Made by a program: the position numbers and the translations under genes
DNA from: an uncultured Anaerolineales bacterium
GTDB lineage: Bacteria > Chloroflexota > Anaerolineae > B4-G1
Direction of reading: 5' to 3'
DNA length: 10,098 nucleotides
Assembly: GCA_964643875.1 (NCBI GenBank)
Contig: CAZXVB010000069.1
Span: 1-10,098 of the forward strand
In this document: positions 7,156 to 10,098 of the stretch, in pieces
Numbering within the stretch: the first letter of the stretch is position 1
Layout of the letters: each line of letters begins with the position of its first letter
Notes under the pieces: model-generated
Told to the model about the DNA's origin: nothing
Seen by the model: the letters and a program-made list of their open reading frames with translations, nothing else
The model's database searches: none

Positions 7156-7215
7156 CAGACGCCAGGTGACCGTTGCCAGACGATGGGGCGGTGAGAGACG
7201 GTCGCCTGACGTCTG
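7156..7215 (+). promoter_or_regulatory. Long imperfect palindrome / leader stem-loop (17-bp arms, 26-nt loop) followed by a T-rich tract, upstream of the second NTPase start
   Basis: CAGACGCCAGGTGACCG (7156..7172) pairs with CGGTCGCCTGACGTCTG (7199..7215): 15 Watson-Crick pairs, 1 G-U and 1 C-A mismatch. It is followed by 'TTGGTTT'. It lies between the candidate promoter (7098..7126) and ATG 7251 and spans the alternative TTG (7173). It could be an attenuator, terminator or regulator binding site. Confidence 0.3.
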
Positions 7216-7250
7216 TTGGTTTACGAGAAGAGGTTCGTAGGATAGCAAAA

Positions 7251-8756
7251 ATGGAGCCAATCGGTCGAGTCATGCGGCACGGATTGCCGAATCAACGCTA
7301 TCTGGATTTCGTTGGACGGTATCTACTTCACCGACCACCGGGTACACCATCGGTGGATCCATTCCAGCCTCAGTTGTCGGTGGAACAAATCGAAGGAGCA
7401 TATGTGGACCGGACGGCTGTCGAAAAAGAAGCCTGTCGGTTGGATACGCAGATCGTAATGGGCCGGCAGGGAAGTGGAAAGACAACCCTGGCGATCCGCT
7501 TGTCCACGCTGCTTCGACAGGGCGTGTTGGTAGTACCGGTTCCTATCGAACTGGCCGAGGTCTACGCTCGACTCGACTCAATCTCCGAGGGTTCAACGCC
7601 GCTGTCCCCCGGCCCTTTGGCAACACTCATATTCGACGCCTACTGGGAAAATCTGTTGTACAATCCGGCGCATCGAGGTCGTTTTTTACCCCGATTGCGC
7701 CAGGATCGGTTGTGGATGGTACGGCTGCGTTGGTTTTATCACCACTTGCCTCCCCGGCATCTTGAAATCCCAGAAGAGTTCGAGTTGATGACATGGCTGA
7801 GAGCCAGTCCATCCAATGAAATCTATGGGGCAGCGATGCGACCGGAGGATATGTTGAGGGAACTGATTCGATTCGTGACCTCGGCAGACCTATCCTTGGC
7901 CTCAGCATGGACACAGGCGTATCGCGCTCGCGCTCCTTACGAACACATTCAAGTGCTTCTGGATGGCGTGGAACATTGCTCGGAGGCCGGGCTGGAGCGT
8001 TTGGGTCGGGATGTGACCTGGCTCCATCGTTTATCTCTGGAAACAGGGCGTATTTCATTCAAACTATTTGCCGGTGACTATTTGCGTGAGGCCTTCGAGA
8101 GGATACGCTGTGTTCAATCCGGGCAAGTAACTCTATACGCGCTTCCTCTATGGAGCGAAGATGACCTCCGACGGTTATTGTACCGCCGTCTGGCGATGTG
8201 GATGCCGGGGGAGAGTATCGCGCCGACGGATTTCTCGGATCGTCGGGAACGGATGACTGAACTTCGGAAGGCTCTGTCCCATTTCCTGGATGAAGAAGGG
8301 GTAAAAACCCTCTGTCGCGATCTGGGAATAGATTATCAAGATTTACCGGCTCAAGGGAAAACGAACAAACTTCGAGAACTGATCGCTCAAATGGAGCGAC
8401 GGGATCGCCTCTCCGAATTATTTGCGATTTCCAGTCGGATCTGCCCCCAATTGGAGTCCCGGTGGCCCATCCCTTCAGAAGGGAAAGAGGGTATGAAGTG
8501 GGAGTCCAATTGGGGAATGCGTATTCCCGACTGCTATTTGACGTCGTTGGCTCGGAAGCATCTGGTCAGAGAGATCGTCGCGGGCGCCCTGCGGGTCTAC
8601 AAGCAAGAGGATGCCTGGGATGCGCCCATACACTTGCTGAAGTTAGCCCGTGGTCTCCTGGCTGCTTCCGTGGGATGTTGGAAAGAACAAGGATTTTGCC
8701 CCCCGCTCAATATCGATCAAATAGCCGCTTTGATCGATTCGTACTGGGCCACATAA
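7251..8756 (+). CDS. P-loop NTPase (STAND-like), paralog of 5484..7007, with internal EAD-like helical adaptor segment (501 aa)
   Basis: ATG at 7251 with AGGAT 7 nt upstream. The ORF track begins at an in-frame TTG at 7173 with no Shine-Dalgarno. Walker A 'VMGRQGSGKTTLA' (about 7455..7493) is preceded by 'YVDRTAVEKE'. Both this protein and 5484..7007 share the N-terminal layout DPF-x13/15-[FY]VDR-x16/20-GRxGxGKT. A Walker-B-like 'IQVLLDGVEH' is present. The segment 'VKTLCRDLGIDYQDLPAQGKTNKLRELIAQMERRDRLSELF' (8265..8430) is read by memory as an effector-associated-domain-like helical module. Confidence 0.7.
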   Translation: MEPIGRVMRHGLPNQRYLDFVGRYLLHRPPGTPSVDPFQPQLSVEQIEGAYVDRTAVEKEACRLDTQIVMGRQGSGKTTLAIRLSTLLRQGVLVVPVPIELAEVYARLDSISEGSTPLSPGPLATLIFDAYWENLLYNPAHRGRFLPRLRQDRLWMVRLRWFYHHLPPRHLEIPEEFELMTWLRASPSNEIYGAAMRPEDMLRELIRFVTSADLSLASAWTQAYRARAPYEHIQVLLDGVEHCSEAGLERLGRDVTWLHRLSLETGRISFKLFAGDYLREAFERIRCVQSGQVTLYALPLWSEDDLRRLLYRRLAMWMPGESIAPTDFSDRRERMTELRKALSHFLDEEGVKTLCRDLGIDYQDLPAQGKTNKLRELIAQMERRDRLSELFAISSRICPQLESRWPIPSEGKEGMKWESNWGMRIPDCYLTSLARKHLVREIVAGALRVYKQEDAWDAPIHLLKLARGLLAASVGCWKEQGFCPPLNIDQIAALIDSYWAT

Positions 8757-8788: not shown

Positions 8789-10006
8789 ATGGTCAGTTTC
8801 CAAGATCGCAAGGAGTCACTGAAACAGATATGTGATCCTGCCAATAGAGGTTTCCTGTTGAACATTTATGGGGAGGCCGGCATTGGTAAATCCCGCTTGA
8901 TGATGGAAGCCAGAGAGCGATTACGGAAAAATTCTCCGCCGACGTTGGTGTTCTACGTGGACCTGAAGCCTGTATCACAGCGAGCGCCAATGGAACGTCC
9001 CGCCGTGTTACTTCAAGAGCTGTTGAGTCGCGCGGAAGGCCGTCTGAGGGTGGAAGGGCAGGGAGTCGAGTATGATGCGGGGCAAATCATTGCTCAGTTG
9101 ACCGCACTGTCCAATCAAAATCCTGTGACGTTGATGTTCGATACCACGGAAACGTTGCAGGAGGATATGGAGTTCTGGAAGTGGTTGGAAACCAATCTAA
9201 TTGGGCCTCTGGTCGTCGAAGGGAGCGTACAATTGATATTTGCCGGCCGGATTCCCGTTCCCTGGCGGCGGGTGGAAGTGCGGCGGGCGGTCAAGCTGCT
9301 CCTTCTTCAGCCCCTTCACCCTCAAGAAGCAGCTCGCGAACTGGCCCGCGAGGTGTTACGCCAACACAATGCACACTGGAACGAAGCCGTGTTGGAACAA
9401 GCGATTTCTTTGGTATTAGAATTTTCGTTTGCACATCCATTATTGTCCGAAAAGTTGGCGGAATTCATTGCGCAAGAGTGGCAGCCACCGCCTGGCTACA
9501 ATACTGGTTCTGGCCGTTCCAATTCCGATAGCCTTGATTTCGGCAGTGAGTTCCGAGGAAAGTTGTGTAAAGAGGTGGTGGAGCCATTTGTCGAACAGCA
9601 CCTTTTGGAAACAGTAGAACCAACCTGGAAGAAGATCCTGTGGTGGGTCAGCGTGCTGGATTGGTTCGATGCTACAATTTTGCAACGTTATCTGCGGCTA
9701 GTGGCCCCGAACATGAGCACTGACAAGCCCGATTATTTTTTCGTGCAGGGTCTGACACGTTTGCGCATCCATCACACCGTTGTTTGGCGAGAGGAGAGGG
9801 GAGACCGAATGCATGGCGTGATTGGGGACATCATGCGACATTGCCTCCAGGTACAGAAGCCGGAGGTCTATCGTCAGGCATGTCTGAAAGCGGCCGAGAT
9901 GTTCGATGAGCTGGCCGGGGAGTTCGAGGATGACCCAGAGGCAGATCGGTATCGTCAACAGGCTGAGAAATACCGCCGACGTGCGGCACAGGAGGTAGAG
10001 GTATGA
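8789..10006 (+). CDS. STAND-type P-loop NTPase (405 aa)
   Basis: Strong Shine-Dalgarno GAAAGGAGAGG 6 nt before ATG 8789, 32 nt after the stop of the upstream gene. 'FQDRKESLKQI' is followed by 'FLLNIYGEAGIGKSRLMMEA' (Walker A, about 8870..8893), and Walker B 'VTLMFDTTE' lies about 85 aa later (about 9124..9150). The C-terminal 250 aa are helical with no recognisable effector or repeat sensor domain. Confidence 0.75.
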   Translation: MVSFQDRKESLKQICDPANRGFLLNIYGEAGIGKSRLMMEARERLRKNSPPTLVFYVDLKPVSQRAPMERPAVLLQELLSRAEGRLRVEGQGVEYDAGQIIAQLTALSNQNPVTLMFDTTETLQEDMEFWKWLETNLIGPLVVEGSVQLIFAGRIPVPWRRVEVRRAVKLLLLQPLHPQEAARELAREVLRQHNAHWNEAVLEQAISLVLEFSFAHPLLSEKLAEFIAQEWQPPPGYNTGSGRSNSDSLDFGSEFRGKLCKEVVEPFVEQHLLETVEPTWKKILWWVSVLDWFDATILQRYLRLVAPNMSTDKPDYFFVQGLTRLRIHHTVVWREERGDRMHGVIGDIMRHCLQVQKPEVYRQACLKAAEMFDELAGEFEDDPEADRYRQQAEKYRRRAAQEVEV

Positions 10007-10098
10007 GCGAGAGAGATTTGACTGAACGCACTCCCAAAATGGTTGGACGACAGGAAGAAACGGTCCGCTTGAGAAAGCACCTGTATGCCCGTGGCGAA
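10003..10098 (+). CDS. 5' fragment of a fourth P-loop/STAND-like gene, truncated by the window end (MSERDLTERTPKMVGRQEETVRLRKHLYARGE...)
   Basis: ATG 10003 overlaps the TGA of the upstream gene (ATGA), which suggests translational coupling. 'MVGRQEETVRLRKHL' is the classic 'hhGRExEl..L' element that precedes the Walker A in STAND NTPases. Only 32 codons are visible, so the call rests on the motif and the operon context. Confidence 0.45.
   Translation, partial: MSERDLTERTPKMVGRQEETVRLRKHLYARGE

Follow-up and report, generated by a model that had tools for sequence, protein, structure and literature searches.

The segment of interest, which lies inside the lid of a predicted ATPase from a Chloroflexota operon, is confirmed by profile comparison as a real EAD7 effector-associated adaptor domain. 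The host protein is an ORC/Cdc6-like AAA+ ATPase and not a classical STAND protein. What is new is the setting of this known domain family, at an unusual site within the protein and in an operon not described before.

Results

An EAD7 domain within the gene-2 ATPase

We analysed a stretch of 10,098 nucleotides, referred to as the window (Table 1). An earlier note on this DNA had described positions 8265-8430 as an effector-associated-domain-like segment inside the second NTPase. The profile search that it had proposed matched the segment in the whole protein to Pfam EAD7 (PF19960) with an E-value of 7.8e-15 and 54.9 bits, above the gathering cut-off of 32 bits, and the positions in the note agree almost exactly with the Pfam envelope. 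The result is thus a strong adaptor-family match and not the lack of any match that the note had named as grounds for rejection. The excised 73-aa piece gave an E-value of 2.5e-16 and 59.6 bits, with an alignment to positions 1-57 of the 62-position profile. Death, CARD and bDLD profiles did not match the EAD7 segment, and EAD1 did so only below threshold.

The mechanical ORF (7173-8756) starts at TTG 7173; judged by the homologues, the true start of gene 2 is probably ATG 7251. The EAD7 envelope spans aa 338-393 of the resulting 501-aa protein (aa 364-419 in the numbering of the longer ORF), and the peptide VKTLCRDLGIDYQDLPAQGKTNKLRELIAQMERRDRLSELF is encoded at 8301-8423 on the forward strand within this frame. 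Across five orthologue sequences that are only 35-38% identical in the inserted block, 23 positions of the block are invariant, and the invariant motif includes LR..L...DE...LC.DL...Y.DL.A.G...K.REL.A...R..R...L.

With ~320 aa ahead of it and ~85 conserved aa behind it, the domain is internal and does not take the N- or C-terminal position expected of EADs. A strong bias towards the termini has been reported for EADs and Death-like domains (p = 3e-47; PMC8195603). Among ~80 other Chloroflexota EAD7 proteins, 47 carry the domain at the N-terminus, ~14 strictly at the C-terminus and ~15 are small, and internal copies occur only in the gene-2 ATPase family.

Table 1. Features of the window, with positions counted from its first nucleotide
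Feature	Position	Strand	Remarks
Gene 1, Sll1717-family/ORC-Cdc6-like ATPase with C-terminal OmpR-type winged helix	5436..7007	+	
Gene 2, 501-aa ORC/Cdc6-like AAA+ P-loop ATPase with EAD7	7251..8756	+	Met at 7251 is the start in all homologues
Walker A/P-loop G-RQ-G-S-G-K-T-T	7461..7487	+	aa 71-79 of the 501-aa protein
Putative Walker B strand IQVLLDGVE	7944..7970	+	invariant D238; canonical adjacent Glu missing
First lid helix SEDDLRRLLYRRLAMW	8157..8195	+	aa 303-315; helix in model, directly before the insert
Whole inserted block (linker, EAD7 bundle, linker)	8214..8504	+	aa ~322-418; missing in EAD7-less orthologues
EAD7 domain proper	8262..8429	+	Pfam PF19960 envelope
C-terminal helical lid part, DAPIHxLRLARGL...CAGCW...PPL motifs	8511..8753	+	aa 421-500; pLDDT ~90
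Gene 3, 405-aa AAA_16/ATPase_2-like ATPase	8789..10006	+	sub-threshold ATPase_2, AAA_16, AAA_22 and NACHT matches
Gene 4, start, cut by the window end	10003..10098	+	translation MSERDLTERTPKMVGRQEE...

The domain is separable from the ATPase lid

The AlphaFold model of the full gene-2 protein contains a confident helical bundle flanked by two disordered linkers (aa 321-330 and 406-418, pLDDT <50). The isolated 85-aa segment was modelled as five helices with a pLDDT of 82.8 (80-83 in all five models). All of the structural evidence is predicted and built on shallow alignments of 10-12 sequences. In the alignment, five orthologues lack the ~97-aa block by a clean deletion; P0006-P0010, P0026 and P0035 join ...PGE(F/Y).. 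straight to ..DWG..IP (alignments A1 and A8). The operons of such orthologues function without EAD7, or at any rate have been retained. By predicted structure and clean deletion, the insert is a small, all-alpha, non-enzymatic and autonomously folding domain. The clean loss, the low-confidence linkers and the folding of the segment on its own at pLDDT 83 rule out that EAD7 is part of the ATPase lid, in line with the separable module suggested earlier.

The predicted fold of EAD7 resembles that of animal CARD/Death domains. Members of the Death-fold superfamily form a bundle of six helices, whereas five are predicted for the gene-2 EAD7, which is a shorter domain (62-aa profile). The comparators are bacterial CARD-like domains (Wein et al., PMC10312443; PDB 8SRZ, 8SS1, 9FRR) and bDLD1/EAD3 (PF20689), while the fold of EAD7 is a prediction. 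The bacterial CARDs characterised so far form the N-terminal part of a protease or an NLR-like protein, in contrast to the gene-2 EAD7 inside an ATPase domain. The base composition of the insert (GC 0.52-0.53 versus 0.54-0.57) gives no sign of recent foreign DNA, and promoter and terminator scans at the insert revealed nothing special.

The host is an ORC/Cdc6-like ATPase

The ORF, with GRQGSGKTT as its Walker A motif, comes second in a row of four P-loop ATPase genes, as the earlier placement in a second NTPase implied. G71, G74, G76, K77, T78 and T79 are invariant (alignment A5), and weak NACHT, AAA_22 and AAA_16 matches are confined to this stretch. We read IQVLLDGVE as a putative Walker B motif; the region is a strand in the model (E232-240) with Q234, L236 and D238 invariant. 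The first lid helix aligns with the gene-1 segment W..EALRAMVEQRIFYY. The C-terminal lid part, which is kept in all homologues irrespective of the insert, corresponds to the sensor-2 region of Cdc6/ORC, and its motifs may be equivalent to the gene-1 motif GSPRHLLRLCQALI. None of the NACHT, NB-ARC or nSTAND Pfam thresholds was reached by gene 2, so that a STAND identity of the host was not borne out by any threshold. Against the Sll1717 family (NF047389), gene 2 scored 21.6 bits, below the cut-off of 75.

Gene 2 is the fastest-evolving gene of the operon. Between loci that share 52-76% identity in genes 1, 3 and 4, its identity is 41-48%, and it drops to 28% in L083, where the gene-1 and gene-3 homologues stand at ~50%. 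The best match of gene 2 in the genome-contig search was 50% identical.

A conserved seven-gene operon in Chloroflexota

Gene 1, which probably starts at ATG 5484, is distantly paralogous to gene 2 (hhalign E-value 5e-5) and contains Trans_reg_C (E-value 1.5e-10). It scored 80 bits against NF047389 (Sll1717), above the cut-off of 75, and matched DS41_1_antiphage (NF053860) with an E-value of 1.3e-53, but at 182.6 bits stayed below the cut-off of 370. Gene 1 is homologous to DS-41, a validated single-gene defence ATPase. Gene 3 is 52-81% identical in all related operons. By synteny with L001, L003, L005, L007 and L090, gene 4 encodes a ~995-aa AAA_16 plus TPR protein, whose homologues show weak MalT-TPR, NsdA and HaaT-like matches.

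The operon content past position 10098 was read from homologous loci and not from the contig of the window, since an exact-sequence query with gene 3 returned no record that would extend it. The conserved Chloroflexota operon comprises the four ATPases, a small peptide whose C-terminus reads ...QCDCAC(K/R), a radical SAM/SPASM enzyme and a 2-TM protein, and this seven-gene cluster is an undescribed operon. PADLOC gave no match for genes 1-3 and only generic TPR, viperin-like radical SAM and weak '2TM' matches for the downstream genes. The related operons lie among housekeeping genes and not in defence islands.

Search for a second EAD7

A matching module on a partner protein, possibly encoded beyond position 10098, had also been predicted. 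A six-frame HMM scan of the window and of L001, L003, L008, L014 and L090, covering up to ~7-10 kb upstream and 6-10 kb downstream, detected one copy only, and precomputed Pfam annotation of the called genes on the P0041 contig contained no second EAD7. As a positive control, the same local HMM recovered the adjacent EAD7 pairs of L033 (EAD7-NACHT and EAD7-TIR-FGS) and L061. Reading up to 10 kb downstream in a locus with 80% identity and in four EAD7-bearing loci that are more distant, we found ATPase genes 3 and 4, the small peptide, the radical SAM/SPASM gene and the 2-TM gene, and no second EAD7 on an effector, a signalling protein or any other product. Because no second EAD7 lies within ~6-10 kb in the loci examined, a partner just past 10098 is not supported, and this part of the prediction is contradicted by synteny. 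The absence removes the strongest contextual signature of EADs. A putative partner of EAD7 could be encoded in trans, elsewhere in the genome.

A pattern scan of the fragmentary MAG carrying P0005 with two peptide patterns found no further EAD7, which is weak evidence since the patterns are restrictive. An EAD7-profile search of a 5.8-billion-protein set, in which 291 word-sharing candidates were scored, yielded no close (>55% identical) EAD7 relative; P0001-P0005 hold the query yet were not re-listed, so that the missing relative is only suggestive. We also considered a cognate domain hidden in another operon protein, and rejected it since the lengths of genes 1, 3 and 4 do not track the presence of EAD7. 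No indel in other operon proteins tracks EAD7 either.

Contents of the lid slot in related ATPases

In the same ATPase family, the position of the insert in the lid is occupied by EAD7 in P0022 and P0041, by bacterial Death-like domain 1 (bDLD1) in P0027, P0033, P0062, P0074, P0065, P0082 and P0067, and is empty in other members. Among orthologues, the presence or absence of EAD7 is a clean polymorphism. EAD7 or bDLD1 further occurs N-terminally or at either of two additional internal sites. N-terminal fusions to TIR (P0067) and PNP_UDP_1 (P0050, P0086) occur in the family, and CHAT and clostripain proteases are encoded downstream of the gene-2 homologue in L087 and L088, two of only six short loci from a metagenome-contig scan with the gene-2 profile. 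EAD7 is thus fused to a Walker-A ATPase with effector-bearing relatives, as in core components of conflict systems. Swapping and fusion of this kind is the pattern by which Kaur et al. defined EADs (PMC7159879; PMC8195603). The TIR and PNP fusions, the CHAT and clostripain neighbours and the alternation of EAD7 with bDLD1 support a role as an effector-coupling adaptor.

All 67 of the 67 other Chloroflexota proteins retrieved with the gene-2 EAD7 contain the EAD7 family. Elsewhere in the Chloroflexota, the fusion partners of EAD7 include TIR, trypsin and FGE-sulfatase domains as well as NACHT, NB-ARC or nSTAND plus TPR proteins, and EAD7 mini-proteins of ~100 aa occur beside PIN or HEPN toxins.

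Discussion

Proposed function and alternatives

Our working model, for which we see about an even chance, is that EAD7 acts as a homotypic coupling adaptor that links the ATPase to another EAD7-bearing protein. Nucleotide binding or oligomerisation of the ATPase assembly would move the lid, which would cluster or expose the looped-out EAD7, and the exposed domain could then bind its counterpart. EAD7 may be an optional output arm on an operon with a candidate built-in output, namely the ...QCDCAC(K/R) peptide, the radical SAM/SPASM enzyme and the 2-TM protein, which would explain why orthologues lose EAD7 while keeping the operon. A homotypic adaptor role has been proposed for EADs (PMC7159879) and was experimentally shown for bacterial CARD-like domains (PMC10312443). 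Against the model stand the lack of a second EAD7 in the loci scanned, the absence of indels that track EAD7, its internal position, the persistence of operons that lack it, their housekeeping surroundings, the lack of PADLOC recognition of genes 1-3 and the purely predicted structures. A broader version, which we consider possible though doubtful, is that the ORC/Cdc6-like family has a dedicated 'adaptor slot' in its lid for repeated insertion of alternative Death-fold modules (EAD7 or bDLD1), with nucleotide-driven lid movement gating exposure, and that the cluster is an undescribed Chloroflexota conflict system plugging into effectors encoded elsewhere in the genome.

The view that the segment is no domain, but charged helical sequence arisen by chance or a regular piece of the ATPase lid, draws on nothing beyond its helical composition; it is already refuted, with practically no probability left, by a PF19960 match well over the gathering score, the clean orthologue deletion, the confident folding in isolation and the 67 proteins sharing the family. 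Rather unlikely in our estimate is a self-assembly module, in which EAD7 would have no separate partner and would bind the EAD7 of other gene-2 protomers and drive or stabilise higher-order oligomers or filaments once activated, as CARD/PYD do. The ATPase core, however, oligomerises without EAD7 in many insert-less homologues, the bDLD1 swap and the replacement by fused TIR or PNP point to effector coupling and not to core assembly, and elsewhere in Chloroflexota EAD7 sits on both sensor-type and effector-type proteins.

We judge it improbable that the four ATPases are a regulatory and not an immune device, i.e. an AfsR/MalT-like transcriptional switch for the RiPP-like peptide and radical SAM genes in which EAD7 would link the switch to another regulatory protein. 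Such a switch would suit the Trans_reg_C domain of gene 1, the AAA_16 and TPR architecture of gene 4 with its MalT-TPR/NsdA/HaaT-like matches, the conserved linkage to the peptide and the SPASM enzyme, and the housekeeping genes around the operons, whereas classical cell-suicide effectors (TIR, PNP, CHAT and clostripain) are fused to, or encoded next to, other members of the gene-2 family, and gene 1 shares homology with an ATPase of validated anti-phage function. Peptide effectors modified by radical SAM enzymes have themselves been suggested as the output of NTP-dependent conflict systems (PMC7159879), and the regulatory and immune readings are therefore not exclusive. Very unlikely, finally, is that EAD7 serves as an integrated decoy as in plant NLRs, to which a phage inhibitor of EAD7/CARD-like domains would bind and thereby trigger the ATPase complex. 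Phage CARD-only proteins inhibit CARD-dependent bacterial defence (PMC10312443), so ligands of this type exist, and a sensing surface would be compatible with a domain that is internal and has no cognate partner close by, and with the fast evolution of gene 2; the fused TIR and PNP effectors in the same family nevertheless fit an output more readily than an input.

Relation to known systems

The EADs of NTP-dependent conflict systems were described by Kaur, Burroughs, Iyer & Aravind (eLife 2020, PMC7159879; eLife 2021, PMC8195603). The gene-2 domain resembles them in its above-threshold sequence match, in being a small, all-helical, non-enzymatic domain on a P-loop NTPase, in its occurrence in a filamentous/multicellular lineage (Chloroflexota), and in having relatives that swap it for bDLD1 or directly fused effectors, the pattern that defines the 'EAD principle'. 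It differs in lying in an AAA+ lid loop and not at a terminus, and in the lack of a second copy in an adjacent gene or within ~6-10 kb in the EAD7-bearing loci examined. The published cores are VMAP/vWA-MoxR, GAP1 GTPase, STAND-FGS and TRADD-N, whereas the core here is ORC/Cdc6-like in a four-ATPase operon.

Defence ATPases of the ORC/Cdc6 type include BrxC of BREX and the Sll1717-family/DS-41 ('AAA2') ATPase of DefensePredictor (PMC13092281). DS-41 is a single-gene system, in contrast to the seven-gene cluster, and no BREX components are present. With STAND/NLR-like systems (Avs, bNACHT, CARD-NLR-like), the operon shares an NTP-dependent oligomerising ATPase with a Death-like adaptor, and TPR repeats supplied by gene 4. 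Unlike them, gene 2 stays under the STAND Pfam thresholds, is structurally closer to ORC/Cdc6 and has no repeat sensor of its own, its adaptor is internal, and functions are split over four ATPase genes.

Implications

CARD/Death signalling is proposed to have its prokaryotic forerunners in EADs and bacterial Death-like domains, of which only the N-terminal CARD-like ones have been tested experimentally. The presence or absence of EAD7 in otherwise orthologous operons, at a slot that is empty or filled with EAD7 or bDLD1 across the family, constitutes a natural experiment on what an adaptor adds. A Death-like module within a moving AAA+ lid suggests a direct mechanical link from nucleotide state to adaptor exposure; if the lid-slot model were true, an NTPase would be wired to a Death fold through an internal domain, an arrangement so far undescribed in animal or bacterial CARD/Death systems. 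The conserved, unannotated seven-gene cluster ties multi-ATPase sensing to a radical-SAM-modified peptide in Chloroflexota. If the partner of EAD7 is encoded elsewhere in the genome, immune components would be wired across distant loci and would be missed by neighbourhood-based discovery.

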